Shown here piece by piece: positions 3,026-55,039 of a stretch of 61,126 bases of DNA (position 1 is its first letter; the number at the start of each line of letters is the position of its first letter). This DNA comes from a virus (lineage: Duplodnaviria; Caudoviricetes). The notes below the pieces were generated by a model. It saw nothing but the letters and a program-made list of their open reading frames with translations. It ran no database searches and was not told where the DNA came from. The stretch lies in the IMG/VR virus record IMGVR_UViG_3300025305_000017, positions 1 through 61,126 of that record; one strand, written 5' to 3'. The position numbers and the translations under genes are program-made.

Positions 3026-3084
3026 CACCTTGAAGAGGGTGTATGAATGGTACACCAAGCGCCCGGGGTTCATCCCCGGGCGCT

Positions 3085-3134
3085 GCGTATCGGGCTAGCT
3101 GCCCGGCTGACGATTCCAACTACGGATGAAACGC
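3085..3134 (+). ncRNA. Type III hammerhead ribozyme 1
   Basis: GCG-UA | UCGGGC-UAGCU-GCCCGG, core CUGACGA, stem II UUCC-AACUAC-GGAU, GAAA-CGC; predicted cleavage after 3089. Confidence 0.8.
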
Positions 3135-18457: not shown

Positions 18458-21400
18458 CTACCTCCCTAGCTGAAAAGCTTCCTGTCTCATAGCTGGTAGA
18501 TCCTGTACAGCCAGTAACTCATCCTGCGTAATGTCGTCAATCAAAGCCCTCTTTTCCTCACCTGACATGTCGCCTTCCATTATACTCTTTCTCTCCTCCC
18601 TGAGGTCAGCAAGTATCTGAGCAATAGCATTCACCTCTTGCTCCAAATCCAGCAACGCAGCCCTCTTGTCGGCGAACTCCTCACTCTTAACGATGGTAAG
18701 CTCACCTTTTTCCAACATATCATAAGTACCCACCGCCTGCGTCACAGCTTCCCTTAGTTGATAGAACTGTGTCACCAAACCACGGGCATCGGGGCGCGCA
18801 AAGAAGCGCCTGATAAATGGATACTCGGTAAGCTTGCGAGTCTGCGTTTCACCCAGTTCATCATCAACCGAGCGCACCAACTGATCAACCGTATCAAGCA
18901 ATACCGTACCCAGCGTACCGCCGTATCCCTTGATCATGTGATCGATCTTGATCGGAGAGTAATTGATCGCCTCCCCTAACTCACGCGCCAGTCCTGACGT
19001 TCTACTGGCATAACGATACCCCGGCTCAATGCCCTTTAGGTATTGCCCTTCGATCTCACGTCCCGTCCAGAAACTATAGTTAACGAGAGCTTCTCCTAGA
19101 GGAAGAACCGCTTGAGGTATAGGATTAAACTCGAACGTATTAACCAACCCCCTTCTCAGGGATTGCGTCACATCAAGAGGGACATCTTGCCCGAGGAACA
19201 AAGCCATTAACCTCTCAGGTATGGTCTTGAACAGGTATCCAACCTCAAACGGTATGGGTATCTTGATAGGCGGCCCGTCATATCCGGGGATCCACGACGA
19301 TGGAATGATCCAGTAGTTGTCCTTTACCTCGGGGTTTTGATTGATGTATTCCTCATCGTCATGCACCAAAGTCCAGTAAGCTGCACTGCTCATTCCTACC
19401 AGCAATGACCTCATCAGGAAGCGGCGTTTGACAATGTCGGACTCTGGTCGTGCAGCAAAGCCGGGCCTCCCCATAGACGATCTATAAAGCACGTCGAGTC
19501 CCTGTATCCTAGCGTTCAAGAAGGGCACCATGACAGCGATATTCTGAATTAAGGCAGAAGAACCCCTAGCCGAGAAGTTGATAACTTCCTGTGCCTCCCA
19601 GAAAGCCTGCACTTCATCGCCAGTCTCTTTTAATACCCTGTTGTAAACAGCAATTCTGGTAGCAGCATCTGACGCCCGCGAACCTGTGCCGGTTACATCC
19701 CATAAATACTTGAATGGGTTGCGAATAGCCCGCCTCATCTCAGAAGGATACTGATACTTCTGAAGTTCCTTTTCGATAAAGGTGGTCATCTTGGTAGGAT
19801 CGCCACCAAAATCAAACCCTGTCATCAAGCCTGCGGAAGCCAGTGCGTTAGCCGACTCATCCCCACGCACAGCACTGTACATCCCTTTCATGGTGCCAGC
19901 TAATGCACCAGTCTTGCGCCCGCTAGTAACCCATGCAGACAACGAGTCACGCAGCATGTTAGCGGCCATGAAGTCTGGTGATCTGGTGATCATCTCCCTC
20001 AGGAAACGGGCTGGCATACCAAACAGATTAACCCACGGCGGGATCCGCTGATGTTCTAAGTAGTTAAATAGCGATGAAAAAAGCAGTTGGTCTCCCACAA
20101 AGAGAGTCATAGACTTACCTTTGACTCTGAAGGTTATCGCCCCCGGTGTCCTGATCTTGGCCCTCACCGTTGTCTCAGGCTCTACCAAGACAAGGTTACG
20201 CATCGCACGCTGCACCCCGACATTCATCATGCCCGTTTGTACAGCAGCTAAAGCATTCTCGGTTAGGGTATCAAGGAATCCTCCAATGGGCATTCCGCCT
20301 TCTACTACCGACACCTCAAGATTGGGGTGCTCTTGCTTTAGTTTCTTAGCATAACCCTTTGCGACTGCCTTCTGATGAGACTCAAAGGTCGTTGGAAGAC
20401 GGGTTACTATCTCTTCTCCATTAATGGTCTCTTTGGTAACGATAGTCCATATCGTTCCCTTGCCAGAGAGAGGGGGAGGAGGCCGCGTAGTAATGCCGCT
20501 AAATACCTGCGTCTCCCCCAGCACCTCTTCATATTTTTGGTCAAGTTGCCTGTAAAACGGAACGTAATCCGCGGTCTCTGTCCATTGGTCGGCCTTCTTA
20601 CGGTCGATAACCCCTGTGTCTACTAAAAGATCCACGAAGTAGCTGTTCCACACCTGATAGTTCTTAAATATCTGATCGAAATCTAGGAAGGTATCCTGTC
20701 CCGTAGCTATTATCTTTCGCGCAATGGCATCTTCCGTTAAGGCTGGGTCACCGATTATACGTTGGATCTCAAGAGGCGTGTTGCCGTACCCTAGATACTC
20801 GATGATCTGATCCTGCGTTAAGAGCCTCTCCCTACCCTCTCTCAGCAAGCGCGCTGCCCTGCGCCCGATAGCATAGGCATGGAAAGTACGGAACCTATTG
20901 CCCTCACGCAGGGGTTCGATGATGGGTATCAAACCTGTAGGCGTACCAGCAATGGGACTAGGCGACAGAGAGCCATCGATGTTGGTTTGCATTGCATCTT
21001 TGGGAATGTTTTTAACGGATGTACCGCCATTGGCATAAACAGGGACGCCCTTGGAAAGAGCATAGGCAGTTATAGCCGTTCCCCTTCTGGCCGAACGTAA
21101 AGCCGTCCACGCAGACGACGCCGCACTCAGGAAGCTAGCGTACTTTGTATCCGACTCAGCCAAATAAACATCAGTCCGACGCGCAGGATCCCACATATCA
21201 ACAACGCTTTGACGGAACCACTTGAAAAAATCCGTGTAACTATCTAGCGGCGTGCTACCGAGCATACCAAGATTGGTTAAAACCTTGCTTCCAAGAGTCT
21301 CGTCGGTGGTTTGTGCGGCAGAAATCATACTTAAATCAACATCACCAACGCCCTCTTCCTTGTTTAAAAACGAGAAGGCCCGTGCGGCTTGGTAGGGACG

Positions 21401-24400
21401 CTTGTGCTTGTCCTTGCGGGTGTAGCCCTTGCGGCTACGCACCACCCGCTTCCTGTACTTGGGTGTGCGCAAGTCCTCGGCAATGACGTTGCGCTGACGC
21501 TCTTCCTCGAAAGCCTTTTTGCCCGCCTTGTCCTTGATAAAGGAGCGCGCTTCCTTGGAAGAGAAAATCCTACGCTGGATCTCATCCTCAAGCTCCAACG
21601 CATCGATGATGGGGTCTGCCATAGAGGCAGAGATGTTGCGCGTCTCTCCTGCAAAGAGGGCTGAGAGGTTCGCCATCTGCGGGATCGAGTCGATGATGCG
21701 GTCAAGCCTGCTACCCTCATAGCGTGATCCCACAGCAGGGTGACCCCGTACCTCAATGCGGTTGTCGCCGCTTTGTATGGTTAAGGTCGCCCGGTCAGGA
21801 CGTTGGTCGAGAGTGAGGCGCATCCCGTGGCCGCGGAGGCTGTCGTATTGGGTATCGGTTATGTCGTAGAACGGTCGAGCGGCTTTTGCTTTAGCTCCTT
21901 CTGCAACCCCTTTAGCAACTGCGCCCCTAGGTCGAACGCCCGCGCCCGCCCTTTGAGTGACCTGAACTCTTTTAACGAGTTCTTTGATTCTGCTCGCTCT
22001 TTCCGTGAGCGCTTTCTCGTAGTCTCTGACATTGTTTAAGTCCATTCCTTTTCTTACTTGGTTGAAAGCCCATAGGGCAGCTTGTGTTTCTATTGGCGTC
22101 CAACGCAATTCATTAGCCACCTTGGTGATAAGACGTTGCGCCTCTAAAACCATTCCCTCAGTCGGGCTGTCTCTATTGAAAAGCAATTGAGCGATGTGCC
22201 GGTCAACAACCACCGCTTCATCCGCATCGCGCATGGCCTGTATCATGTCGGGTATTTTCTTGCCCGCAAAATAACGCGCTCCGCCGCCCGGTAACTCAGT
22301 AGGTGGCTTACCAGCCCTTTCCCGAAGAGTTCCCTCCCTAGATGGGAGCCTTCCCATGAGACGATTGATGTTATCTACCACCGGATCCAATAAGAGCTTC
22401 GGTGTAGCAGTTTTGCTAAGAATCCCAAGAGGGTCGCCGGTCTTGATAGCTTCATAAACTACCAGCGCCAGATCAATGTTACGATCAATCCGCTTCTGCT
22501 GGCTGGTGATGGATATGATGTCGTTGAAAAGCTGCATGTCATCACCAAATAGCTCATGCAGAATAGGACGATGGCGCTCATACCAGTCTCGATAATTTCT
22601 TGCTGACTTGGCGTCCTTAATAAGCTGAGTAAAGGTGCGCCTAGATGTAGGCGCTCTGGGCTTACGAGGTAAGACAGGGTACTCTCCTAGCTGTACGGCA
22701 CCCGCAACCATGCGCCGTGCTTCCTTAACCTTGTTGGCTTCATCAGCAAGGATGGCGCGCACTTCACCGGGGTCTACACCGGGAGTATCTTCGGTGATCA
22801 CACCGCTCAAGACATCGTTCTCGAATGCCATCTGGCGGATACGCATGTCTACTTGAGAGGGGCGTAGTAGTTCATCTACTGGAGAAGGACGTAGCGGCTC
22901 AAGAATAAACCGTGGAGTTTCAACTGTAGCAAACTCAGTGTCTAGTGATTGTAAATTAGCCAAGAACTTATTAACAGCAGCGGCACTATCAGACGCTACA
23001 TATCCCTTGAAGTTACCGCTGTCCCAGAACTGAGCTACCGTTTCAAAATTATCTACGAGGATATCTTCAGTTGCTTCCTCGGAGATCATGTTCTTGTGCA
23101 TACCCTCCAGCGTTTCTCGGCTCTTCGCGGTCATCTCTTTCACGCTATAATAGCGTGACTTGAACTTATTTTTCTTTGCCTCCTTCTGATCCCACGCTGG
23201 ACGAGCAGCCATCCCGTCCTTCTCGAATACTTTTTCTTCAATGATGACCAAGCCGTTCTTTTTAGCCAGTTCCTTCATGCGTTTGATTTGAGGCTCACGG
23301 TCAGGAGAAATGAATTGGAATACCATAGCCTCATGGACAACATCATATTTTTTAGGGGGCTGGAAGTAGTAGATAGGAGTGCCATCATCCTCTGCCCACG
23401 CGAGAGTTCCTTCCTGCTCGCGTGATCCAAAGGCTTCTAATTTATAGTCAGAACCGGGAACTGGATCTTTCTGAAAAACCTTAGCCATTTCTATATTGGG
23501 ATCAATGCCAGTCGTTTTGATAGCACCCCCAGATAGAGATGTGATGGTTTTAATTAAAGCCCCTTCCGATGCCCCAACATCCAACATGGTGGAACCGTCC
23601 CCGTATGTGTTGACGATAGCCTCTGCCACAGCCAACTGCACTTCCCCAAAACCGGGAATGCTGGTCTTTATGTGATGCTCGAAATTACCCTTCCACTTAT
23701 CATACAGAGCCGGAACGCCAAAGTAATCGGTAAGACCAATGACTGGAATATATGCGTTACCCGTAGAGGGACGATGTTTGACTCCCAGAGTCGCTGCTGT
23801 AAAAAAATCTGTGTAATCCCTACCAGTTCCGGTCATCACCCGCGCCATCTTGGTCACGGCAGGTTTCTTTAGCTCTAGCTTAGGCATCGTTGGAGGAGAT
23901 CCCACCATCGACCGCGCCATCTTTGGCTTCTTTGTGCCCTTGGCAAGGAACGCATTTACTGAAGCTTCTATAGCTTCTGGAGAAAGGTCACCGAACTGAT
24001 ATTCCCCTAGCGCCTCCATCTTTGTCAGCGCCTCTACCTTCCTTTGGGTAGCTTTGGGTAGCACAGGGTGTGCCGTCTCAAGATAATAGAAAGGCCCTGC
24101 CTCTAAAGTGTCGAGAGCGAGACGTTGGAGACCGCCCCTATGTGCGGGCATACCCGGCATCTCCTCGGGAACGACAAGATCGAACCAACCTCTGATGGGA
24201 TGTGTAGATGCAGGATCATTCCACTCGATCCCTATCTTGGTCGGGGAAGCTATCCTCATCTTCTCCCCTTGATCTATGGTTATAGCAGGGTTGTTCCTCG
24301 GAGCGCCTTTCTCACGGTTCCAATAAGCATCCAACAATGCAGCCACACCCTGCGTTGCATTCTTATAGGGAGTGAAGGCAGCAAATTCCTCGTCGTGCTC

Positions 24401-27400
24401 GGAAGCATGGGCGAGACCGAAATCCTGTGGAGTACCCCGTGGCACAAGAACACGATACTCGTTGCCAGCTACACGCACCCTCCCCCATACGATGGTGGGG
24501 TTGCCAGCAATGTCGCGTCTGGTTTCCAGAGCAAACGCAGAGGCCGGTAAATTGGCGTAGCGGCGGGATTGTTTGACCTTACGCTCCCGTATGGCATCGG
24601 CTAATCTTTGTGCATTACGATTTTCAGCGTTAAACGCTTCCTCATCTATCCGAAAAGCAACTAGTTTCACATCATCAGGGTAAGTATCAAGAGCTACGTT
24701 AGCCCTCTCAACATCTTCAGAGGGTCCGCGTGGAGTAGTGGGGGTTTCGACAATCAATTCTCTCTTTGTTGGCGACCTCTCCACCGCAAACTTTACATCA
24801 TCCTGTTGAATATCTATTGGAGGCCCTAATTCAGCACGATCTTTAGCAATGCCAATGTCATCGAAGGGCACATACCAGCCACTAATGGGTGCAGATAGAT
24901 CAGCGTTAGGAGCGTCAGGAGTACCAAGAAGAGTTCCTAAATCTTCCCGTAACAATCTTGAGTAAACTCGATATGCATCACCCAAGGGATTTTCAAGATA
25001 TCCTTCTGATGGAATCGTCAGAGCCTCAAGGGTTCTCAGGTTTTGAATAGTAGGATCATTATCCCACTCCCCAATGATGAAATTTAATTCATTCTCCTCA
25101 TGTAGCTCTATCCCGGGGAGGCTAACAAAGTCCTGCTTTCTCCAAAATTTATCTAACGCAGTCTCAATGGGTTCTGGCTGGAAAAGAAGATCAGTTTGCG
25201 GGGTGCCCTGCAACCTGACGCGCGGGTTGCCATCATCATCCAACTCACGAACTGGTCTTTTGAGAAGGAGGTCGTCTAATTCATTAAATTGCGTAGACAG
25301 TCCCTCCCAATTAGGAGCGTAAACCTCGAATATTTCACTCCCATCATCCGCAAGCTCCGCGTGAATATAGCCAGTGTTCTCCCCCATAGAAGGTGGCAGC
25401 TTAACCTGCCCATTACTTACATGCCTAACCAGTTGAGCCATACCCTCGTGCGATATAACATAAGCGTCCCACACATAAAGCTCGCCCTTGTTATCGTAAG
25501 CAAAACGTAACTCGGCTCTCTTTCCCACACGCCCAACCAGTCCTTCAGCATGATCTCTCCTGTACTTTTGCGCCATCCTTGTTATCACATGTCGAGAGGG
25601 ATTAATCCTTACCTCCTCAACCTCAGGCTCATAAGTACTGTGAGCGAAAGCTGCCGCTACTTCCTCACCAGTAAACCTTCTGCCGCGTGACCTCCCTACT
25701 TTCTCCTTATCTATGGCACTCATCTCCTCGTCGATAAGAGGATCCCCGATCATGGTGTCTTCGATAGGAAGAAGCCCTATTTTCTGAGGCGCAAAGGGGC
25801 GCTCTTCAATAGGCAGTGAGTCTGCCCGTTTGGCTGGGTCAATGCCGAGACGGTGGAAATTGAACCAAGCGTTGTTTCCCAGTGTCTCAGTAGCCAAAGC
25901 CCAGCGCGCCCACGGACTAGCCATCATACGCGCATGATTAACGTAGGCTGCCTTTCCCCCGAACTTACCCAACGAAAGAGGTGACATGGTGTGAGCGTAG
26001 TAGTCATGCACAGCCCGTAGCACATCATTGTACAACAAGAACGTGCCGTTCATATCGACACGCCCGCTCTGTTTTATGAGGGGATGGTTGGAAGAGAAGT
26101 CACTTTCGTCAGTCTTGAGGATATAGAGATGATTGTTGTTCATAACATCATCTCTCATGGCTGCGCTGTTAGCGTATGGCTCCCCCTCTCCCTCGAACAC
26201 CTCTACCTTGACAGGCAGGGCGTCGAACTGACTAATCGACTCTCGCTGAAGTTCCGTATAGGCTCTTTTAACAGCAGGATTCCCGCTGTCATCATCCGGC
26301 ATAGCGTCGTAGTTGTCGGCTATCCTCTCAAAGGATGTTCTTTCTTCTGGAGTGAGGGTGGTTTGTGGGACGGCAGTGGCAAAGGGCAGCCCACGCAGGA
26401 ATTGAGCTATTCGGTGACTGGTTCTGTTTCCTTCGTGGTACGCCGGGAGACGAAGTGTGCCTGATATCTCTTGATACCCGTTTGTGGCGGCAAATCCACT
26501 ACCGTAAGCCCAGAATCTTCTAATGCTTCTGTTAGCTCGTGATATGCTTTTTCCAAGGGATTGGCGGGCGCGGTTGGCTTGTTGTTGGAACTCTTGGATG
26601 GCGGCTGTGTCATTAGGATCTCCCCAGTAGTATGCCTCTAAATATGTATCAGTTACCGTTAGGCCGGGCAAGCCTGATGACTTAATGACCTCATCGATCT
26701 TTGCCCGCGATAATGGTTTAGGCAAAAGATAGCGAACTGCAATAGTGTTATACGACCCATCTGGATGAACGAACCCGGGAATGTTATTGTTGGGGTCACC
26801 ATCCAAAACGTGGAGTTGTTCTTGATTGAAGTTGGTGGAGAACTGCTTGAGGGCAACCAGCGTATCCTGCCTGTCCGGTTCAGCAAAGCCCACCAGCAAT
26901 CCAACTGATGGCTCACCCTCTCCCGCATAAACCCCCTGCGAGGGGAGTATCTGGAAAGTAGCTGTGGGAATACCGCTCAACAAGTAGGTCAGGGCATCAG
27001 TGGCAATGTCCTGCAACAGGTGAATGGCGTCTTGATTGCCCGTTTGGGCCTGCTCCTGTAAAGCAGCAAGGCCGGGGATCTCAGCATTAACGACCGACAG
27101 GTTGGAAGCTATCTGATTGACAGGGACATCGTCTATGCTCTTGACCTCGCTGCGGTCGAGAACGTCCTGATCCCAAATAACGTAGTTATAAGTACGACTA
27201 TCGCGTAACTCTATCGACCCCGGGTCCGCTGACCATTCTTCTAAAGTCTCTTTTAAATCGCGAGCATCTCTGAGTGTAGATCTTAGATTTTGGGTATAGC
27301 GTCTATTTGCCGCTCTTCCTTTAGGACCAAAAGCAGGTTCTGTCGCTAGAGCAAGAGACGTTTGCAACCGTTCCACCGAAGCCGTGGCCTGCTCTAGCGC

Positions 27401-30400
27401 AAGATCAACATCCCCTGCGGTAGCACGCACAGCACGAGATGCTGCGAGATAGCCTAAATGGTACGGATTGTTTTCATCTATCTCTTCGCCATTATAAAAA
27501 ACACCGATTGGTTTATCCCGACTCAACTGATCCCAATATCTAAGACCCGGAACACCTTCGTCAGCCAACGCCAAAGAAAGAACCTTCTTGGCCTCTCCCC
27601 GCTCTATGCCTTGTTTCTTCTCAATCGCCTCAGTAAGCGCGCGATAAATACCATTAACGGTTCTCTTGGGGTCCAACTGGTATGGTATGTACTTCTGAGG
27701 CACTCCGCTTACCACATTGGTCAGAGCCTCCTGCACTTCTGGAGATTGCTTGTCGAATGCCAGATCAGCATCCATAAACAGCGCCATGTCGGCATCTGGA
27801 ACGTCTATTTCATAGAGGGTAGGCGCGTCTATGGCTGCCCTGACATCTGTACCAGCAGCAATCCATTGATCTATTAGTTGGAGTGCCTCAGAAGTAACTG
27901 CATCCGCTGCTGGTCCGATTTGATATACAAGCGAGTCTAACGATCCGCTTAAATAATCTCTCGCCAACTTTAATAACCGCTGTGGATCAGCACCTAGAGC
28001 TTTCTCTTCTTGTGGATTTCGATAACTACCAAAGAGATCGTTAAGCGCTGCTATTTTATGGCCCCGTTCATGGCTCACAATACCGGAGCTAAGGTCCACA
28101 GCACTGGGCCTAAGGTCTCCAGTCTCCCACCTACCCCGTAGAGATGGATGAGGAAGCGACCTACGCCCCCCTGCATACTCAAGAACCATTTGCAGAATGT
28201 AATTAGCATACGTTAATGGAGAAACCAGTTCCTCTAATGACGGCATTTCCGAGGCAGGCACCACGGGATAACGTCCCCCAACAGGTCTGAGGGGGTTGGG
28301 AAGAACGCCGCCTATTGCACCTTTGTATTCATCACCAAGATGTTGGAGACCCGGCTCTTCCCACGTTTTTTGAGGAACACCATCTATAACAATCTCCCTG
28401 ACAGCATCCTGATTCCTCCACTCCTGCGCACGATCAGCCCTATAAGCCGCACCCGTATCCCGCACCTGCCCCGCATAATAACCCCACCCCTCCATAGTGG
28501 TGTCCTCTCCAGTACCCTGAAAAGCCAGATCTGGCTTGCCGAACACCCGATCCAAAGCCTTACCCCACGGCACGGGACTACCGCTGAACGCGCGCGCCTC
28601 TTTAACCCCCTCCTGCTTTTCCTTCTCAAGCTTCTTACTTAGACTTTCCTCCAGTTCCTCTGGGAAGTCCTCTGTTCGCGCCCCAGTCGGAATAAAGCCA
28701 GCAGGAGTGGGATCAATGATGCGATCAAACACTTGCGCGGCGTTGTAGATTTTGGCGTCAGCAAGACCCCCCTTCAAATTCCTGAAGAAATTGAGGATAC
28801 GCTGCCATATTGTCAGGGGGCGGCCCTTGAGAAAGTTCTGCCCGCTGGCGTGTCCCCTGAACAACTCGGCAGCCACCTCTTCAAGCTGCTCCGTCTCAGA
28901 GAGATCGGAGTAAGTCTCGCGCACCACCTCCATGACGCTCTTAACGGAGCCATCGTCTCTAAGCTGCCCCGTCCAATGAGGAACTTCATTGGCCGCTTCT
29001 GTTAAAGCTTTTATATCGGCAGCATCCAATGTCTTCATATCGACCAGCGCATGGATGGTCTCGTGGTCAAGCAGACCAGCCATGTAACGAGCCATCCATT
29101 TGGGATTCTTGAGAGTGGCTGGAGGTAAGCCATCAAGAGCAATCAAGATCGCTCGCTTAACAGCGGCCTCTTGAGGAATAAATATCGCCTCGTCCCCAAC
29201 CTTCTGACCATATATGCCAGCAATGGTATCGGTAATTATCAGTGGTACCTTGTCTCCTAGATTAGAATACGAGCCAAAGCGACGTAGCAGGTTCTTGCGT
29301 ATCTGACTGAGGATGGCGGGGGTGATATCGGGCTTGATGGTGGCAGTCCGAACAGTATCGGTAAGAGTGGAGATATCTGGAATAATCTGCTTCTCGGCAG
29401 GACCGATGTCCACATGCACAGGATCAATAGCCGACGTAATGATCTCTTTGGTCTCTTCCAGAATAGCCGGTGCCTCTCCACCCACGTCTTCATCGACAGG
29501 ACTGATACCCGGCAGGGCAGCAGGCGGCGTTGCGTCAATGGTTTCTTCTATGATGGGGGGTTCGGGGAGGCGGGTAGTCGGGATAGCTGCCGCAGTCTCA
29601 TCCAGAATAGGAGGCTGTGGAATAGGCTCAAGAGGTATCGCTTCAGCCGTTTCTTCAAGGATCGCGGGCGGCGCGAGCGGCGGCCCCTCTTCTGCTACCG
29701 TTTCAAATTCTTCGGGGAGTCCTTCAGTGGGGTCGGGTGGGGGTACTGGATCCGGTGTGGGGCGAGCAAAGGGGCCACCCACGCTACCAACAAACCCACC
29801 AGTAAGGCCACCAATAGCAATGGCATTAGCAATATTCTCCACCCGCTGTGCCAACTGGATGTCTTCCGGGGAAGCGCCCGTAGCCTCGGTGTATTCACCC
29901 GTCGTCTCCTGAATGATCTGCTGCGCACCTTCGGTAAGCGCCTCTACAGTGAGGCCCTTCTTGCCGAACTGGAGCATCCGCTTGGCAACTGAGTGTGCGA
30001 TTTTTTCTTTGGTTTTTTTCCTGAAGGGAGCAGTGAGGGCAGAGAGACCGGCCATATCCAAAGCGGCCATCGCCACACCCGGACCCAAAGCTATGCTAGC
30101 CGCCGTGTCAGGATCTACCTTTTCCTGCTCAACCAGATAATCATAAGTATCGCCATAGTTCTGGAGGAAAGATCCCGTACCAGCCCCAACACGCATCCCT
30201 ACCCCTACGCCGATAGGGCCACCGGGTGCCCCTGCTATCCCACCAGCAACAGCACCAGCCAATGGCACACCTAAGGAAGCAACGCCTTGCCCTAATCCTT
30301 GACCGACGTAATCCAGAAAAGTATCAAGGTCTTTGATTTGAGTGAGGGAGGGGACGCGAGCAACAAAAGCTTCTTTATCAGGCTCTGCTTCAAAGTCACT

Positions 30401-30667
30401 GACGATCTCAGAACCCCAGTCAGTGACTGTATCTGAGCCAAAGAAACGACCCAGCCCTTCGATGGCGCGCCCAGCCAAACGTGGGTTCTCTTGGGTAAGA
30501 GTGCCCCAAAATGAGCCAGCGAATTGTTCACCAAACCCCGATTCGCTAGGCTGAGGAGGGGGAGCTTCGTAGGGGAATTGTTGATTGATGTACGCTAGAG
30601 CTTCATCTTGCGTAGCGTCATCAGGAAACGAGAACTGCTGCCCTTCAAATTCATAAAGCTGTGCCAT
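18458..30667 (-). CDS. Giant polyvalent virion/ejection protein (4069 aa) with C-terminal LPD38-like region
   Basis: HETIH zincin motif, ART-like, PBECR-like, SAM-dependent and glycosylase-like segments; C-terminal IKIPIPFEVG..FKTIPER and SPIKIDH..KGY.G motifs; last gene of the ejection module. Confidence 0.85.
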   Translation of the reverse strand: MAQLYEFEGQQFSFPDDATQDEALAYINQQFPYEAPPPQPSESGFGEQFAGSFWGTLTQENPRLAGRAIEGLGRFFGSDTVTDWGSEIVSDFEAEPDKEAFVARVPSLTQIKDLDTFLDYVGQGLGQGVASLGVPLAGAVAGGIAGAPGGPIGVGVGMRVGAGTGSFLQNYGDTYDYLVEQEKVDPDTAASIALGPGVAMAALDMAGLSALTAPFRKKTKEKIAHSVAKRMLQFGKKGLTVEALTEGAQQIIQETTGEYTEATGASPEDIQLAQRVENIANAIAIGGLTGGFVGSVGGPFARPTPDPVPPPDPTEGLPEEFETVAEEGPPLAPPAILEETAEAIPLEPIPQPPILDETAAAIPTTRLPEPPIIEETIDATPPAALPGISPVDEDVGGEAPAILEETKEIITSAIDPVHVDIGPAEKQIIPDISTLTDTVRTATIKPDITPAILSQIRKNLLRRFGSYSNLGDKVPLIITDTIAGIYGQKVGDEAIFIPQEAAVKRAILIALDGLPPATLKNPKWMARYMAGLLDHETIHALVDMKTLDAADIKALTEAANEVPHWTGQLRDDGSVKSVMEVVRETYSDLSETEQLEEVAAELFRGHASGQNFLKGRPLTIWQRILNFFRNLKGGLADAKIYNAAQVFDRIIDPTPAGFIPTGARTEDFPEELEESLSKKLEKEKQEGVKEARAFSGSPVPWGKALDRVFGKPDLAFQGTGEDTTMEGWGYYAGQVRDTGAAYRADRAQEWRNQDAVREIVIDGVPQKTWEEPGLQHLGDEYKGAIGGVLPNPLRPVGGRYPVVPASEMPSLEELVSPLTYANYILQMVLEYAGGRRSLPHPSLRGRWETGDLRPSAVDLSSGIVSHERGHKIAALNDLFGSYRNPQEEKALGADPQRLLKLARDYLSGSLDSLVYQIGPAADAVTSEALQLIDQWIAAGTDVRAAIDAPTLYEIDVPDADMALFMDADLAFDKQSPEVQEALTNVVSGVPQKYIPYQLDPKRTVNGIYRALTEAIEKKQGIERGEAKKVLSLALADEGVPGLRYWDQLSRDKPIGVFYNGEEIDENNPYHLGYLAASRAVRATAGDVDLALEQATASVERLQTSLALATEPAFGPKGRAANRRYTQNLRSTLRDARDLKETLEEWSADPGSIELRDSRTYNYVIWDQDVLDRSEVKSIDDVPVNQIASNLSVVNAEIPGLAALQEQAQTGNQDAIHLLQDIATDALTYLLSGIPTATFQILPSQGVYAGEGEPSVGLLVGFAEPDRQDTLVALKQFSTNFNQEQLHVLDGDPNNNIPGFVHPDGSYNTIAVRYLLPKPLSRAKIDEVIKSSGLPGLTVTDTYLEAYYWGDPNDTAAIQEFQQQANRARQSLGKSISRANRSIRRFWAYGSGFAATNGYQEISGTLRLPAYHEGNRTSHRIAQFLRGLPFATAVPQTTLTPEERTSFERIADNYDAMPDDDSGNPAVKRAYTELQRESISQFDALPVKVEVFEGEGEPYANSAAMRDDVMNNNHLYILKTDESDFSSNHPLIKQSGRVDMNGTFLLYNDVLRAVHDYYAHTMSPLSLGKFGGKAAYVNHARMMASPWARWALATETLGNNAWFNFHRLGIDPAKRADSLPIEERPFAPQKIGLLPIEDTMIGDPLIDEEMSAIDKEKVGRSRGRRFTGEEVAAAFAHSTYEPEVEEVRINPSRHVITRMAQKYRRDHAEGLVGRVGKRAELRFAYDNKGELYVWDAYVISHEGMAQLVRHVSNGQVKLPPSMGENTGYIHAELADDGSEIFEVYAPNWEGLSTQFNELDDLLLKRPVRELDDDGNPRVRLQGTPQTDLLFQPEPIETALDKFWRKQDFVSLPGIELHEENELNFIIGEWDNDPTIQNLRTLEALTIPSEGYLENPLGDAYRVYSRLLREDLGTLLGTPDAPNADLSAPISGWYVPFDDIGIAKDRAELGPPIDIQQDDVKFAVERSPTKRELIVETPTTPRGPSEDVERANVALDTYPDDVKLVAFRIDEEAFNAENRNAQRLADAIRERKVKQSRRYANLPASAFALETRRDIAGNPTIVWGRVRVAGNEYRVLVPRGTPQDFGLAHASEHDEEFAAFTPYKNATQGVAALLDAYWNREKGAPRNNPAITIDQGEKMRIASPTKIGIEWNDPASTHPIRGWFDLVVPEEMPGMPAHRGGLQRLALDTLEAGPFYYLETAHPVLPKATQRKVEALTKMEALGEYQFGDLSPEAIEASVNAFLAKGTKKPKMARSMVGSPPTMPKLELKKPAVTKMARVMTGTGRDYTDFFTAATLGVKHRPSTGNAYIPVIGLTDYFGVPALYDKWKGNFEHHIKTSIPGFGEVQLAVAEAIVNTYGDGSTMLDVGASEGALIKTITSLSGGAIKTTGIDPNIEMAKVFQKDPVPGSDYKLEAFGSREQEGTLAWAEDDGTPIYYFQPPKKYDVVHEAMVFQFISPDREPQIKRMKELAKKNGLVIIEEKVFEKDGMAARPAWDQKEAKKNKFKSRYYSVKEMTAKSRETLEGMHKNMISEEATEDILVDNFETVAQFWDSGNFKGYVASDSAAAVNKFLANLQSLDTEFATVETPRFILEPLRPSPVDELLRPSQVDMRIRQMAFENDVLSGVITEDTPGVDPGEVRAILADEANKVKEARRMVAGAVQLGEYPVLPRKPRAPTSRRTFTQLIKDAKSARNYRDWYERHRPILHELFGDDMQLFNDIISITSQQKRIDRNIDLALVVYEAIKTGDPLGILSKTATPKLLLDPVVDNINRLMGRLPSREGTLRERAGKPPTELPGGGARYFAGKKIPDMIQAMRDADEAVVVDRHIAQLLFNRDSPTEGMVLEAQRLITKVANELRWTPIETQAALWAFNQVRKGMDLNNVRDYEKALTERASRIKELVKRVQVTQRAGAGVRPRGAVAKGVAEGAKAKAARPFYDITDTQYDSLRGHGMRLTLDQRPDRATLTIQSGDNRIEVRGHPAVGSRYEGSRLDRIIDSIPQMANLSALFAGETRNISASMADPIIDALELEDEIQRRIFSSKEARSFIKDKAGKKAFEEERQRNVIAEDLRTPKYRKRVVRSRKGYTRKDKHKRPYQAARAFSFLNKEEGVGDVDLSMISAAQTTDETLGSKVLTNLGMLGSTPLDSYTDFFKWFRQSVVDMWDPARRTDVYLAESDTKYASFLSAASSAWTALRSARRGTAITAYALSKGVPVYANGGTSVKNIPKDAMQTNIDGSLSPSPIAGTPTGLIPIIEPLREGNRFRTFHAYAIGRRAARLLREGRERLLTQDQIIEYLGYGNTPLEIQRIIGDPALTEDAIARKIIATGQDTFLDFDQIFKNYQVWNSYFVDLLVDTGVIDRKKADQWTETADYVPFYRQLDQKYEEVLGETQVFSGITTRPPPPLSGKGTIWTIVTKETINGEEIVTRLPTTFESHQKAVAKGYAKKLKQEHPNLEVSVVEGGMPIGGFLDTLTENALAAVQTGMMNVGVQRAMRNLVLVEPETTVRAKIRTPGAITFRVKGKSMTLFVGDQLLFSSLFNYLEHQRIPPWVNLFGMPARFLREMITRSPDFMAANMLRDSLSAWVTSGRKTGALAGTMKGMYSAVRGDESANALASAGLMTGFDFGGDPTKMTTFIEKELQKYQYPSEMRRAIRNPFKYLWDVTGTGSRASDAATRIAVYNRVLKETGDEVQAFWEAQEVINFSARGSSALIQNIAVMVPFLNARIQGLDVLYRSSMGRPGFAARPESDIVKRRFLMRSLLVGMSSAAYWTLVHDDEEYINQNPEVKDNYWIIPSSWIPGYDGPPIKIPIPFEVGYLFKTIPERLMALFLGQDVPLDVTQSLRRGLVNTFEFNPIPQAVLPLGEALVNYSFWTGREIEGQYLKGIEPGYRYASRTSGLARELGEAINYSPIKIDHMIKGYGGTLGTVLLDTVDQLVRSVDDELGETQTRKLTEYPFIRRFFARPDARGLVTQFYQLREAVTQAVGTYDMLEKGELTIVKSEEFADKRAALLDLEQEVNAIAQILADLREERKSIMEGDMSGEEKRALIDDITQDELLAVQDLPAMRQEAFQLGR

Positions 30668-30684
30668 TCAGCAACTCATCACAT

Positions 30685-33159
30685 CTAGAATGGATAGACT
30701 TGTCGTGGCGCGGCAACAATGTCGCCACTGTTAGGATCACGAATAGTCGTGTGAACACCTGCTGCCGTCTGTGGAGCGACACCAGTAGCCGCTCTGATTT
30801 GTTCTAGTTCCTTTTTATATTCCTTTAATAGCTCTTTCTTCACCTTATCAGGATCATCTCCATACAGATCCTTTAGCCTACGTTCAACCCGTTTTCCTGC
30901 GAGGCTCCGTACCCACTGATGATAAGTTTGAAGGGAAGCCTTTGATGCAGCATAAGGAGATTGAGCACTGCCAGCGCCCCAAGCCTTTCTTATTGCTTCT
31001 CTTGCCCCGGGGAGGGGGTTACCGGGTTTACCATCGACATCCTCAAACCACCTTTTCCAATGAGGACTTTCCTTGTGGCTTGCTAATATATCTTCTTCAA
31101 ATCTCTGATAGGCGTCTGGTTTTCTCTTAAGAGCCGCCGCCTGTAATTCCAATGTAGCCCGTGCCAAGTCCTCTTTAGCACCCGCCGCTCTGGAGGCAGC
31201 TAATCCCTTCATGCCCTCCAAGCCACCTCGTCCCAATGAACCAAGGGCAGTTGCTCCGGGCAGTTGCGCTGCCGCCGCCGTCCCAAATCCAGCGCGCGCT
31301 AAAAATTCCCATAGATTCTGTTGGTCTCTTTCTTTTTGGCCCGCCAAGAGAGCACTCGCAGCAGAGGGTATTCCCGCAGCATCATCAACAGTAGCGTCAT
31401 CAAGTGCACCCGGCTTCCCAGCAGCCATATTCCTGAGAGCACCCTGCCTCCAACTTCCCGGCCCCCCGAAAGCAACGGTCCTCGCATAAGCTTCACCCAT
31501 ATCAGGAGGAGCAAAACCCGGCGGAGTAGATGCCGCTACTAACGGCCTCTCACTCTGACTCAGAGCTAACTGCAAGTTAGGTGGATCAGGAATAGGATCA
31601 GCAATTTTATAACCCCCGACAAAGGGCAATCCCCCAACTTTCTCAGCATAAATCCTCTTAAATGCTTCTTTATCCGCAGCACGTTGCTGCTCCATGTTTT
31701 TTCTGTATATCACATCGTTAATCGGGGCTGCTTCAGAAAAACGACCAGTCTGAATACCTGCAAGCTCTGGGACTAGAGGCTGTACTGTTGATGGCGGAGC
31801 ATCAGGCGAACCAGAAAGCACAGTCTCTTCCTTGAAGCGTTCAGGAACCGGCAGCCCAAGCCGCCCCACTAACCGCCTACCCGCGCCCCCTAAATCAATT
31901 GCGCCTTGTAGCACTTTTTCACCTATGCCACCCGCCTGACCTATGCTTGTGCCAGATGCTGCTACCTGTGGCAGTCCACCTGTAGCTCCAGTTGTAGCTC
32001 CAGACATGAACTGCGGCGGAAGCCATGTCCCAGATAAGGGAACTGCTTCCTCAATTCGATTTAACCAATCCACGGCCATCAGCGTTTCATCAGGTGACAC
32101 AATAGGTTGTTCAGCAAGCTGTACTGGAGGCTGTGCTGTAGGCACCGCAGAAATAGCAGCCTCTTCTTCTGTTAGCGGTTTATCCCCGGCAGTAAAGAAA
32201 ACATTCCCGCCAATATCCACCTTATCAGGTGTCAAGGGCGTTGTGAGGTTGCCTTGAGAATCATAGAAATCTTTAAGACTCTTGCTAATAGTCCCTCGTT
32301 TGGCAGTTAAGGTGGGGTTCTCAAAATTGAGCGAGCCACCAACAGGATTCGCCGCATTGAACGACCGCCCATCAAAGAGCGCCCCCGACACGAAGTATCT
32401 CGTCCAGCCGCTTGCTGGTAAAAGCTTGTCTACATCATGTCCTGCCTTCCCCACTGGCTCAAATTGTTGTTTTGCTTCAAGAACTTCCTTAACACTATCC
32501 CCCCATTTGCCATCTCTGAGACGATTTATAATTACTGCCGTTACTGCAAATATGCCCTTTACATCATCCCCAGTTTCCTGATCAACAACCCTCGCAATTC
32601 TGTCTTTATCTTCATCAGTTAGGCTCTCAATCACCTCCTCAATAGACTTAACCCTACCTCCCTTAGCCATCCTCACAACACCACCTTGCTCCATCATCAT
32701 GGGGGGAACAGCCTGACGGGCCATTGGTGGAGGCACTGCTCTGGCAAGAGCCTGCATCTGAGGAGGAACACCCGGTGACATCTGCCGTTGGGGTAGCGCC
32801 CTGATACCCTGCTGGGCTTGCGGGGGCATACGTCCCTGCATCATCTGAGGAGGAGGCCCCTGCATCATTTGAGGTGGAGGACGGCCCTGCATCATCTGAG
32901 GTGGACGGCCCTGCATCATAGCCTGCGGCCCCATTAGAGGACGGGGCTGCTGTGGTGATGCGCCACTAATAACATCATCAGCAACCGTAGTCTCCGCTTC
33001 CTCTACATCAGCCCTATAGGCGTCTTCCATACGCTTACGGCGATCCAACTCACTAATGATTAAATATGTATCAACAGCCCCGGGGTTCTGTACTTGCTGT
33101 AGCAAAACTTCCTTAGAAAGACCCTTCAGAATCTCTGTTATCTGTAAGATATTGGTCAT
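30685..33159 (-). CDS. Ejection protein with SleB/Hydrolase_2 cell-wall hydrolase domain
   Basis: IARVV..E....G..AV.AVI.NRL..G.W..SV..V....QFE; P/Q/M-rich repeat; start reassigned to ATG 33159 (MTNILQ). Confidence 0.75.
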   Translation of the reverse strand: MTNILQITEILKGLSKEVLLQQVQNPGAVDTYLIISELDRRKRMEDAYRADVEEAETTVADDVISGASPQQPRPLMGPQAMMQGRPPQMMQGRPPPQMMQGPPPQMMQGRMPPQAQQGIRALPQRQMSPGVPPQMQALARAVPPPMARQAVPPMMMEQGGVVRMAKGGRVKSIEEVIESLTDEDKDRIARVVDQETGDDVKGIFAVTAVIINRLRDGKWGDSVKEVLEAKQQFEPVGKAGHDVDKLLPASGWTRYFVSGALFDGRSFNAANPVGGSLNFENPTLTAKRGTISKSLKDFYDSQGNLTTPLTPDKVDIGGNVFFTAGDKPLTEEEAAISAVPTAQPPVQLAEQPIVSPDETLMAVDWLNRIEEAVPLSGTWLPPQFMSGATTGATGGLPQVAASGTSIGQAGGIGEKVLQGAIDLGGAGRRLVGRLGLPVPERFKEETVLSGSPDAPPSTVQPLVPELAGIQTGRFSEAAPINDVIYRKNMEQQRAADKEAFKRIYAEKVGGLPFVGGYKIADPIPDPPNLQLALSQSERPLVAASTPPGFAPPDMGEAYARTVAFGGPGSWRQGALRNMAAGKPGALDDATVDDAAGIPSAASALLAGQKERDQQNLWEFLARAGFGTAAAAQLPGATALGSLGRGGLEGMKGLAASRAAGAKEDLARATLELQAAALKRKPDAYQRFEEDILASHKESPHWKRWFEDVDGKPGNPLPGAREAIRKAWGAGSAQSPYAASKASLQTYHQWVRSLAGKRVERRLKDLYGDDPDKVKKELLKEYKKELEQIRAATGVAPQTAAGVHTTIRDPNSGDIVAAPRQVYPF

Positions 33160-33163
33160 AGCG

Positions 33164-34246
33164 CTATCCAGTAAGGGTTTTGTAAGCACCAAGAGCACCA
33201 AGGCCAGCACCAGCCAACTGACCCGTAAATGATCCCGGTGCTTGGTATTGGTAAACCTCGGACTGAGGTGTAACGGGCACTCCCTGTAATAGGCCAGCCA
33301 AGAACTGAAGCTGCCTACGCTCAAAGTCCCGCTGATTAAGGAAGTCCTGATAGGCCAAATCAAGGTTGGCCTGATCCATTTTCTGATAAGCAGCCCCCAC
33401 TCCCTGCAACGCCCCAGCTTGAGAAAGCTGTTGCTGTAATATTTGAGGGTCCATTCCAGCGGCGGCAGCCGCAGCCTGTAATCCATACTGCGCCTCCTGC
33501 AACCTCTCTGCTCCCCCAAGTTGAGCAGCCTGTACGCGAGCAGCACGATCCCGCTGGAACTGATCCATTGCCTGCTGTTGAGCTAAACGAAATCCCTCCG
33601 AGCGTTGACGGCTTTCAAGATCGCCCATACGCTCCTCGAATTGACCGCGTGCCAATGATTCTTCCACGGCAGCACGGCTTCCCGTGCGCGTTCCACGCCC
33701 CACACGGGCAGCTTCCCTTTGCTGGGCCTGTAACCCAAACTGCGTTTCAGCACTCCTCCGCTGCCCACCAAGAACATCCTCCAAATAGGGATCAAAATAG
33801 TCCTTATAATCATAAGATGGCCTGTATTCCCCTATAAGCCCGCTGTAGCCCTGTGCTTGAAATGGGCGTGGTCCGAACCCGGCAGCAGGAGAAGGCCCCT
33901 CAGCACCCCCTACAGGAGCCTGAGGAGGCGCCCCCACCTCACCAGCAGGGGGTGGGGGAGCATACGGACGGTTAAGAATATTGGAGTAATAGTCCTGCGC
34001 AGCGTACATTCCCTGAGGAGCGGTTGCGCCTGCCTGTGTCTGCAACCCAAATCCTAGGCTCTGCTCCGGTGCAAATGGGGCAATGCGTGGTCCCGGGTAA
34101 CCCAAATAGGGCTGATCGGTAACCGTTTCGCCTCGCGTTAAAAGACGCTCGTAGTAAGGCTGTGCGTATTCGGGAAGACTAGTCTGTGTAACCGTGCTCT
34201 TAGTGGGCGTAGGGTTGACACCCCCGCCACCTCCACCTTTACTCAT
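33164..34246 (-). CDS. DNA transfer/pilot (ejection) protein
   Basis: MSKGGGG start, LPEYAQPY, Gln/Ala-rich, Gly-rich hydrophobic C-terminus. Confidence 0.65.
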   Translation of the reverse strand: MSKGGGGGGVNPTPTKSTVTQTSLPEYAQPYYERLLTRGETVTDQPYLGYPGPRIAPFAPEQSLGFGLQTQAGATAPQGMYAAQDYYSNILNRPYAPPPPAGEVGAPPQAPVGGAEGPSPAAGFGPRPFQAQGYSGLIGEYRPSYDYKDYFDPYLEDVLGGQRRSAETQFGLQAQQREAARVGRGTRTGSRAAVEESLARGQFEERMGDLESRQRSEGFRLAQQQAMDQFQRDRAARVQAAQLGGAERLQEAQYGLQAAAAAAGMDPQILQQQLSQAGALQGVGAAYQKMDQANLDLAYQDFLNQRDFERRQLQFLAGLLQGVPVTPQSEVYQYQAPGSFTGQLAGAGLGALGAYKTLTG

Positions 34247-36771: not shown

Positions 36772-37068
36772 CTAACTTGTTGTAACCGTTACGGTTCCAA
36801 TTGCACTAGCTGCCGAAACGGAACCTGAGTATCCTACATTAACAAGCACGATCTTCAATGTGCCACTGTCGTTAAAAACAGAACCTGTCGCCAACTGAAA
36901 GCCACTCGTGGGCAAGTCCGTCAGCACCAACGTAGTGCCGCGCAAGGCCCCCGGGTTGGCTACCTGTTGCACGAACGCATTAAGCGTCCTCACCAGATCA
37001 TCGGCATATGCCCTCTCATACCCTTCTGGCGGGGAAGGGAAGACCGGCAGGCCGCCCTTGAAGTTCAT
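36772..37068 (-). CDS. Small virion structural protein
   Basis: Operonic position after the tail nozzle gene; LPTS..L..G.V..D.GTLKIV. Confidence 0.6.
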   Translation of the reverse strand: MNFKGGLPVFPSPPEGYERAYADDLVRTLNAFVQQVANPGALRGTTLVLTDLPTSGFQLATGSVFNDSGTLKIVLVNVGYSGSVSAASAIGTVTVTTS

Positions 37069-39365: not shown

Positions 39366-39369
39366 TAAA

Positions 39370-39891
39370 TCAGTCCAGTGGATCGGGCCAGTCGTGCATG
39401 GGAGCGTTGCCGTCATCAGGCGCGACAAACATATTCTTCAGCCCAGTGACTGTCTTCTTTGCGGCAATGGCCTTGGTGATCTTCTTCTCCACCGCCCTCA
39501 CCGCAGCACGATATGTCGCCACGTCATCGGGGATCGCTTCCTCTGTCTCTGTCTGCCTAATGACGTACCAGTCAGTAGACTTCAATAAGCTCAGAGCACT
39601 CTGCGCTGTACGCTCCGTGTGTTTTTTCCTCAACTCATCCATCGGCTTAGGCGTGACGTTGTCCCACACACGCACCACCTTCTCGGATTGGATGTCGTAG
39701 CGCTCTCCCCTGTAAGTGTAGAACTCGCTGTCTTGATGCTGGATCTCCAACGGGAAGACGCCGATGTTGGCAAGCTGGTGTTTGTCCCATGCACGGAAGA
39801 TCGCCGCCGGGTGCTGTATCTCATCAATGGTGATGGCTTGAGCGCCATTGATGATTTTGATGACCTGATTACCCTTACGCACACACCACAT
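39370..39891 (-). CDS. Tail fibre assembly-like protein
   Basis: LL..TDWYV.R..E....IP..V..YR..VR...WP motif. Confidence 0.65.
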   Translation of the reverse strand: MWCVRKGNQVIKIINGAQAITIDEIQHPAAIFRAWDKHQLANIGVFPLEIQHQDSEFYTYRGERYDIQSEKVVRVWDNVTPKPMDELRKKHTERTAQSALSLLKSTDWYVIRQTETEEAIPDDVATYRAAVRAVEKKITKAIAAKKTVTGLKNMFVAPDDGNAPMHDWPDPLD

Positions 39892-39902
39892 AACTCACCT
39901 CG

Positions 39903-40214
39903 CTACGTCTTGTTTGCCTTTACAACTACCTTTTTCAGATGCTCTATCTCGCTCCTGAGCGTGGCTAGTTCTCTGGTATCCTTCTCCAACTTCTCGGGAC
40001 TGAGGATGCTGCTCACTATATCCAGCCTGTGCTTAAACAATCCATTGGACTGTTCGATTGAGTCGAGACGATTATCCAACTCTGTTTTGCTCTTGAACAA
40101 CACCTCCACTCTTTCCAGCAGACCGTTGATCTTGTATTTGGCAATCGCCGCCGATCCTATTATCGCCGCCACCATCGCTGCGAGGGATATGAGATTAGAG
40201 GTTGTAAGCTCCAT
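39903..40214 (-). CDS. Membrane-anchored coiled-coil protein
   Basis: N-terminal TM helix followed by heptad repeats. Confidence 0.55.
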   Translation of the reverse strand: MELTTSNLISLAAMVAAIIGSAAIAKYKINGLLERVEVLFKSKTELDNRLDSIEQSNGLFKHRLDIVSSILSPEKLEKDTRELATLRSEIEHLKKVVVKANKT

Positions 40215-40216
40215 CT

Positions 40217-44032: not shown

Positions 44033-44033
44033 T

Positions 44034-54851: not shown

Positions 54852-55039
54852 GACGCTGTGCGTTTGATGTTTGCCCAGTATTCTTTAGCTTGGGCTGGGT
54901 ACATCCTGTCGCCATCCAAGGTGACCAGCGGAATGACCGCAGCTTTCTTGGCTTTCTTGGCAGCCCTCTTTTGAGGTTTGTTGGCCTTAGCCGACACACC
55001 CCCTATAGAAATACTCTGCTTGATAGACTTCCTTGCCAT
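54848..55039 (-). CDS. Small basic hypothetical protein
   Basis: Overlaps the portal stop; Lys-rich. Confidence 0.5.
   Translation of the reverse strand: MARKSIKQSISIGGVSAKANKPQKRAAKKAKKAAVIPLVTLDGDRMYPAQAKEYWANIKRTAS

Follow-up and report, generated by a model that had tools for sequence, protein, structure and literature searches.

On ribosomes that have stalled at the 3′ end of a messenger RNA (mRNA), ArfA recruits release factor 2 (RF2) by means of phenylalanine 25 and the strand formed by residues 27-30, which extend the beta-sheet of RF2, and its basic tail, with a KH motif, occupies the mRNA entry channel, which only ribosomes stalled in this manner leave open (PMC8012679). The active protein comprises 55-60 residues, 46-48 of them ordered when it is bound to the ribosome, and according to the same source ArfA is found in some beta- and gamma-proteobacteria only (PMC8012679). 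Phage-type polyvalent proteins, for their part, are predicted to travel in the virion and to enter the cell together with the DNA, where a metallopeptidase embedded in them would separate them into units (PMC5512222; Iyer, Burroughs, Anand, de Souza and Aravind, 2017). Here we describe a locus that brings features of both together. It is found in IMGVR_UViG_3300025305_000017, a complete linear virus record of 61,126 bp (CheckV 100%) that was analysed over its whole length and is called the window below. A giant open reading frame (ORF) of this record (18458..30667, from the ORF list and its translation) encodes a phage-type polyvalent protein of 4069 residues that hosts a short ArfA-like module; this ORF and all genes and protein features located below are on the minus strand. 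The analysis confirms that a phage polyvalent protein has taken up a peptide of the ArfA family as one of its modules, and it partly supports the view that this peptide would be injected and serve in ribosome rescue.

Homology of the Embedded Module to ArfA

The ArfA-like region that was noted first corresponds to residues 3041-3092 of the giant protein (RSFIKDKAGKKAFEEERQRNVIAEDLRTPKYRKRVVRSRKGYTRKDKHKRPY; 21392-21545), in frame with the 4069-residue ORF. Its core is the 31-mer formed by residues 3059-3089 (RNVIAEDLRTPKYRKRVVRSRKGYTRKDKHK; 21401..21493), which is matched by BLASTP, PF03889, DUF7230, phrog_20887 and the family profile described below. The original prediction had placed a module of about 50 residues between two linker motifs, a description that agrees well with what is found: between the upstream motif KEARSF (residues 3038-3043; 21539..21556; motif scans) and the downstream linker-like motif QAARAF (residues 3093-3098; 21374..21391; found with a looser motif scan and identical in L141, a viral fragment discussed below) lies a unit of 49 residues (3044-3092; 21392..21538), near the size of active truncated ArfA.

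For comparison, arfA of Escherichia coli K-12 was taken from NC_000913.3, and its translation agrees with the ArfA stretch that the prediction had quoted. Composition-adjusted BLASTP aligns N3060-H3088 of the giant protein with N14-H45 of ArfA (14 identities in 32 positions, one gap of three residues, pairwise E 8e-6). At this sequence level only, Y3071 is aligned with F25 of ArfA and KRVV at 3073-3076 with QRVE at Q27-E30, and the basic tail RSRKGYTRKDKH, which includes K3087-H3088, falls upon the ArfA tail with its KH motif at K44-H45.

The relationship becomes clearer at the level of the family. The module and 43 small relatives form an alignment of 44 rows (A1) with the consensus RN-IA-DLRTPKYR-RVVRSKK-YTRK-KH, in which P18, K19, Y20 and R23 are nearly invariant and the part corresponding to the RF2 contact (the aromatic residue, then R-V) is the best conserved. 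When the A1 profile was compared with all PDB sequences, eight matches were obtained at E <= 10; the top six, with E values from 7.9e-5 to 4.6e-4, are all ArfA chains from ribosome complexes (5mdv, 5h5u, 5u4i, 5mdw, 7oj0 and 5mgp), and the remaining two have E values of 0.22 and 0.48. A single stretch of 97 residues gave no match in the PDB at E <= 10, so that ArfA was reached by the family profile only. Alignment of A1 with 15 enterobacterial ArfA sequences (A2) by hhalign gave a probability of 90.3% and an E value of 1.5e-6 over 41 columns, covering ArfA residues 11-54.

Composition-preserving shuffles were used in three comparisons, in two of which the window's own row had been left out of the profile. 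The module scores 14.8 bits with the enterobacterial ArfA profile (best of 1000 shuffles, 10.6), residues 1-55 of E. coli ArfA score 25.4 bits with the small-protein profile lacking that row (best shuffle, 9.4), and the module scores 72.4 bits with the 43-member small-protein profile, again without it (best shuffle, 8.1). As none of the 1000 shuffles matched the real score in any of the three tests, the likeness to ArfA is not due to composition. The pattern that the prediction had recognized by eye is thereby recovered by pairwise alignment, by the PDB profile search, by hhalign and by the shuffles, and the profile similarity beyond basic composition, for which it had proposed to look, does exist.

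Bridging sequences are also known: chromosomal proteins of 35 residues from Pelagibacteraceae (SAR11) and gp30 of the pelagiphage HTVC027P have an N-terminal half of the phage type (NPIAEDLRSPKYKKRIV) followed by a KKGKGS[FY] stretch of the E. coli type. We regard the homology of the module to ArfA, as judged from these comparisons, as established with very high confidence; residues ~3044-3092 are best classified as a genuine member of the ArfA superfamily, in its DUF7230 / phrog_20887 branch.

A Common Free-Standing Family in Phages and Bacteria

What the original prediction had not noticed is that the module is a captured copy of a common family of free-standing phage genes. Comparison of residues 2990-3139 with 1.84 billion representative proteins by phmmer gave 47 matches at E <= 0.001, 43 of which are proteins of 37-93 residues that cover the module only, at 42-73% identity; the other four cover only the domain upstream of the module. 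At E <= 0.01, 30 of the 44 A1 rows match DUF7230 (PF23876) and three match ArfA. In PHROGs, phrog_20887 is matched by 34 rows and phrog_2701 by 11, both being listed there as of unknown function. The module itself matches phrog_20887 with an E value of 6.7e-7. NCBIfam holds no family for the module or for any of the 44 rows, save for one unrelated YD-repeat match.

In IMG/VR, a pattern scan returned at least 599 stretches, and at least 517 viral loci were confirmed by tblastn. Among the best 80 of these 517 loci, 79 have the match in a stop-to-stop frame of 37-107 codons and are hence free-standing; the only one with its match inside a large frame, L003, is a fragment of the same phage lineage as the window. 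Some free-standing members of this set (L003-L082) are located on contigs of 160-174 kb. When one genome per prokaryotic species was searched, 54 loci were confirmed (L086-L139), all of them in short frames of 35-132 codons. The bacterial records that carry the family include Pelagibacteraceae (SAR11), SAR86, Rhodospirillales, Micavibrio and others, several on contigs longer than 1 Mb; some of the proteins encoded there are ArfA-like proteins of merely 35-50 residues (for instance L102 and L124-L126). The copies in SAR11, SAR86 and Rhodospirillales chromosomes indicate that the ArfA family seems much wider than the distribution stated in PMC8012679.

A tblastn search with a small family member found no isolate phage at E <= 1e-3. 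At E <= 10 the same search returned 19 isolate phage records, all weak (best E 2e-3) and to be taken as leads only, among them the Roseobacter phages CRP-13, CRP-212, CRP-9 and CRP-2 and the Acinetobacter phages ZZ1, 133 and Ac42. In the literature searched, a free-standing phage-borne ArfA has already been noted once, at the level of annotation: gp30 of HTVC027P is reported to be a protein that "contains an ArfA (PF03889.18) domain", with high expression both early (3 hours post-infection) and late (12-15 hours post-infection) (PMC12753301).

The free-standing homologues (P0023, P0026, P0028, P0039 and others) carry unrelated tails of very different length after KH(K), which recall the C-terminus of E. 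coli ArfA, a part that is weakly conserved and can be dispensed with. It is removed through non-stop mRNA (PMC8012679).

Rarity and Apparent Constraint of the Fused Form

The fused form is rare and was seen in the window's phage lineage and in one relative of 48% identity; three of the 17 relatives of the giant protein carry the module. One of them (P0002), present in a public protein collection with 22 member sequences, is identical over the 4069 residues, which shows that the giant frame is no assembly accident confined to this record; the second (P0003) is near-identical. The third (P0004) is 48% identical to the window's protein over residues 2900-3250, and in it 31 of the 35 core residues of the module are identical, the four changes being conservative. 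In the viral fragment L141, whose C-terminal region is 91% identical, the 44 codons of the module show two synonymous and no non-synonymous differences from the window, as compared with seven synonymous and ten non-synonymous differences in the 132 codons upstream of it; this comparison, though a small sample, points toward constraint on the module.

Elsewhere the module's place is occupied differently, by other sequence in P0014 and P0018 and by a different short segment in a group of relatives of 2600-2850 residues. No other fused form was found among proteins of 80-2000 residues, which is weak evidence as to rarity, and there is no second, free-standing copy of the module in the window genome. 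Four relatives that lack the module in their giant protein (100, 95, 92 and 71% complete) were searched for a free-standing copy at E <= 1, and none of the four has one; the pattern "either fused or free-standing", which had been considered, was dropped for this reason. The distribution of the fused and free-standing forms marks the module as an accessory gained by one sub-lineage and not as a core function. On this comparative evidence, the module was captured from a very common small free-standing phage gene and fused into a linker of the polyvalent protein.

Architecture and Genomic Context of the Giant Protein

The C-terminal part of the giant protein contains an LPD38 domain (residues 3771-3951; 18815..19357; PF18857, 113.3 bits against a Pfam cut-off of 27), which is listed as confined to phage-type polyvalent proteins (PMC5512222). 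Residues 2357-2480 (23228..23599) form an S-adenosyl-L-methionine (SAM)-dependent methyltransferase-like domain, for which Methyltransf_12 scores 24.4 bits (E 4.9e-5), under its cut-off of 30, and Methyltransf_31 gives an E value of 0.13; a weak match to DUF7178 was also seen when the protein was searched in pieces against Pfam. Directly upstream of the module lies a small domain conserved among homologues (residues 2990-3037, LSALFAGETR...IIDALELEDEIQRR; 21557..21700), which also occurs without the ArfA-like module: P0020, P0022, P0038 and P0055, proteins of 85-998 residues, match query positions 1-52 only, and the relatives P0014 and P0018 keep this domain in the absence of the module.

The C-terminal 580 residues have relatives in 153 isolate phage records, whose annotations vary (for example "large polyvalent protein" or "putative virion structural protein") and are often those of DNA methylases. 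The giant gene closes the structural gene module and lies downstream of the terminase (57514-59010), portal (55039-57504), major head protein (51292-52209) and tail-fibre or structural genes (40217-44032 and 37065-39428), as assigned by the analysis of gene order. Between the tail-fibre or structural genes and a 953-residue ORF that adjoins the giant gene (30685-33546) there is an ORF of 704 residues. The 953-residue ORF contains an endolysin-like piece (residues 302-367; phrog_15649, E 3.6e-7) and may encode a wall-degrading internal virion protein. In podovirus-like genomes, internal or ejection proteins are encoded at such a place after the tail genes. Taken together, the gene order, the LPD38 family and the annotations of its relatives make it likely that the giant protein is located in the virion.

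By large terminase, the nearest isolates are phage 023Pt_psg01 (58% identity) and the pelagiphage HTVC027P (56%). Gp85 of the latter, a "putative structural protein", shows no similarity to the C-terminal 963 residues of the giant protein (best E 2.6). A nucleotide search of the phage collection with positions 20000-24000 of the window gave no match, and a scan of the window for transfer RNA and transfer-messenger RNA (tmRNA) genes found none. The G+C content of the window (46-56%) would not suggest a SAR11 host. It drops to 0.456 at 40001-45000, as against 0.51-0.56 elsewhere, over a tail-fibre or structural gene of 1271 residues, a dip that could reflect the exchange of a host-recognition gene.

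Motifs of the same kind as those flanking the module recur along the giant protein. The pattern K-x-[AS]-R-x-[FMY] occurs nine times (mean 0.18 and maximum 2 in 500 shuffles), and the strict form K-[EMQ]-[AS]-R-x-hydrophobic has six copies, found in the giant ORF only among the six-frame ORFs of at least 100 codons in the window. These six sites, at residues 689, 2032, 2249, 2273, 2648 and 3038, bound domain-sized pieces, the methyltransferase-like domain being placed between 2273 and 2648, and relatives of the giant protein carry motifs of the same kind (DKQAR and DKEAR). Such K-x-A-R-x-hydrophobic motifs may be processing sites. A candidate processing peptidase is the region around the HExxH motif HETIH (residues 535-539; 29051..29065), which is conserved in homologues: the context YxAG-x-x-DHE-x-x-H is present in eight of eight homologues checked, and in an alignment of six rows (A3) no row departs from the H, E and H of the motif or from three Glu located some 60 residues further downstream. 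This domain possibly cuts the giant protein at the motif sites. ArdC-type MPTase domains have a similar EE-x-x-AE helix.

Proposed Mechanism and Alternative Explanations

The simplest reading of these sequence data is that the peptide, once freed, would act as ArfA does. The giant polyvalent protein would be packaged and ejected into the cell along with the DNA, and cleavage at the K-x-A-R-x-hydrophobic linkers, possibly by its own HExxH domain, would free a peptide of ~50 residues. Where a ribosome has stalled at the 3′ end of a cleaved mRNA, the basic tail of the peptide (RSRKGYTRKDKH, with the KH end) would enter the vacant mRNA channel, and Y3071 together with the strand KRVV 3073-3076 would recruit RF2, upon which the peptide chain would be released. 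Ribosomes trapped by the breakdown or shut-off of host mRNA, or by defence ribonucleases (RNases), would in this manner be freed at the very start of infection. We put the probability of this reading, namely of a captured module homologous to ArfA which, as we infer, is delivered, cut out and active in RF2-dependent rescue, at roughly 0.5. Its stronger version is considerably more doubtful: here the virion would be pre-loaded with a rescue factor that is cut out by the protein's own HExxH domain and acts before any phage gene expression, and the free-standing homologues would make rescue a common phage strategy.

Several observations weigh against the proposed mechanism. The likeness to ArfA stays under the gathering cut-off of Pfam: PF03889 scores 9.4 bits with the 52-residue piece and 12.5 bits (E 0.008) in a six-frame search of the 61-kb genome, in which the module is the sole match (21401-21472), against a cut-off of 25.5 bits. 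Since the same six-frame search also gives matches at E <= 10 in 10 of 14 control genomes, the six-frame match would be insufficient by itself. The module likewise scores 16.7 bits with PF23876 (E 0.008), under the cut-off of 27. As regards the processing step, assignment of the HExxH region to a known peptidase found no support in Pfam (no match for this region among ten overlapping pieces of 500 residues), in the fold search (an AlphaFold2 model from the six-row alignment was poor, with a mean predicted local distance difference test score, pLDDT, of 57.5, and Foldseek gave 0 matches to the PDB at E <= 0.001) or in the comparison of its profile with PDB sequences (nothing below E 0.3). The three relatives that are at least 92% complete and have neither the module nor a free-standing copy show that this group of phages can do without the function. 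An internal virion protein usually has few copies in each particle, and the amount delivered would be low if the factor did not turn over. Finally, Glu3064 is aligned with A18 of ArfA, a position at which the family has K/R/Q/E/A, and the small residue is absent from the module. The E. coli variant A18T still binds and recruits RF2 and cannot activate it (PMC8012679), so that the RF2 activation step may differ in detail. A complex prediction for the module, with A1, and RF2_ECOLI, a stand-in that may not be the RF2 of the host, gave no answer, neither for nor against binding.

One alternative, which we consider unlikely, accepts the rescue activity and dispenses with delivery: the giant protein would be a late polyprotein, processed in the producing cell, and rescue would occur late in infection, as the free-standing copies presumably do. 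The high expression of the free-standing gp30 of HTVC027P at 3 and at 12-15 hours post-infection (PMC12753301) is in keeping with it, and the linker motif, private to the giant protein, fits self-processing anywhere. Against this, the LPD38 domain and the position after the tail genes, beside an ORF resembling wall-lysis proteins, are typical of ejected internal proteins, and relatives are annotated as polyvalent or virion structural proteins, although these are annotations and not experiments.

A second possibility, to which we assign a still lower probability, is that the module is derived from ArfA and does not trigger peptide release. It would either act as a blocker, plugging the mRNA channel of vacant ribosomes or of the 30S subunit against host translation, or remain tethered and dock the giant protein or a neighbouring domain on the ribosome. 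Docking would suit the methyltransferase-like domain about 600 residues upstream of the module, and a C-terminal extension might be tolerated, as ArfA residues beyond ~48 are flexible on the ribosome (PMC8012679). The bulky Glu at the position aligned with A18 would suit a blocker, given that ArfA(A18T) recruits RF2 without activation (PMC8012679). However, the same bulky residue is found in the chromosomal copies of SAR11, SAR86 and Rhodospirillales, which are most simply interpreted as the cells' own rescue factors, and for this reason we see in it a trait of the family, not the sign of an inhibitor. Furthermore, a stoichiometric agent delivered at few copies per virion would do little, and the residues that would contact RF2 are the best conserved part of the family.

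It is improbable that the module is a basic linker only, serving for instance in DNA binding within the capsid, its likeness to ArfA being a relic. This idea draws on the other short basic stretches found at the same place in P0014 and in the group of 2600-2850 residues, and on the fact that relatives lacking the module manage without it. It does not explain why the non-basic signature residues N, I, L, P, Y, V, G, Y and H are retained, why 31 of 35 residues are the same in P0004 despite 48% identity around them, why the codons differ from those of L141 by no non-synonymous change, or why the score with the family profile (72.4 bits) stands so far above the shuffle maximum (8.1). A chance match between two lysine- and arginine-rich peptides, suggested by the very basic character of both, by the ArfA score under the Pfam cut-off and by the matches in 10 of 14 control genomes, we regard as already refuted by the shuffles (0 of 1000 in each of three tests), the hhalign probability of 90%, the six best PDB matches, all to ArfA, and the bridging sequences.

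Significance

These observations extend the ArfA family beyond the textbook picture, to the chromosomes of SAR11, SAR86 and Rhodospirillales and to at least 517 viral contigs. Phages carry an ArfA-like protein as a common small gene, which in the literature searched has been named in one phage paper by annotation only, and one lineage has an ArfA-like peptide built into a giant protein of a class predicted to be injected. If both delivery and activity hold true, the module would be the first known case of a translation-rescue factor carried as cargo in a virion, and it would tie ribosome rescue to the conflict between phages and host defences, where non-stop ribosomes arise from RNase toxins, from abortive infection and from the decay of host mRNA. 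By the same token, ArfA-type rescue by the hundreds of free-standing phage homologues would be a common phage strategy, so far unstudied.

Comparison With Known Systems

The original prediction was aware of no description of a fusion of an ArfA-like peptide to an ejection protein; in the open-access literature searched, an ArfA-polyvalent or ejection protein fusion is not in print. Searches joining ArfA with polyvalent proteins returned only unrelated work, and the term "DUF7230" was not found in the searched literature. In the paper of Burroughs and Aravind (2019; PMC6514570) "ArfA" occurs twice and "phage" does not occur. The main text of PMC5512222 contains no occurrence of "ArfA", "rescue" or "linker".

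The protein described here resembles the phage-type polyvalent proteins (P1 DarB/DdrB, N4 virion RNA polymerase; PMC5512222) in being giant and multidomain, in carrying LPD38 and in combining a methyltransferase-like domain with module cargo that varies among the 17 relatives. It differs from them in that the main text of that study describes no translation-rescue module, and in that its candidate peptidase is a conserved HExxH without family support. T4 Alt and other host-modifying proteins that are packaged and injected offer a parallel of another kind, as effectors made in advance whose action precedes all phage gene expression (PMC5512222); Alt, however, is an ADP-ribosyltransferase acting on RNA polymerase, whereas the module would have no enzymatic activity and would act as an adaptor for a release factor of the host.

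Among rescue factors, BrfA of Bacillus and ArfT of Francisella are likewise small basic peptides that recruit RF2 or release factor 1 (RF1) to non-stop ribosomes, and the KH motif is also present in BrfA. Both are described as having arisen independently of ArfA, with very low sequence similarity (PMC8012679), unlike the module, which is homologous to ArfA itself. The DUF7230 / phrog_20887 / phrog_2701 proteins are 42-73% identical over the module and have the same signature, RN-IA-DLRTPKYR-RVV-S-K-YTRK-KH; they are encoded by separate genes of 35-107 codons, whereas here the same unit is fused into a giant protein encoded in the structural gene module.

ArfA (YhdL, PF03889) of E. coli and other beta- and gamma-proteobacteria is itself a free-standing protein of ~55-72 residues, made from a non-stop mRNA under the control of tmRNA. 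The module, embedded in a protein of 4069 residues, cannot use this non-stop-mRNA control, lacks the KGS insertion and has Glu in place of A18. Yet it aligns unambiguously with ArfA over residues 14-45, that is over the RF2-recruiting strand and the KH tail, and keeps N14, I16, L20, P23, the aromatic residue at 25, R26, R28, V29, K34, G35, Y39, R41, K42, K44 and H45.

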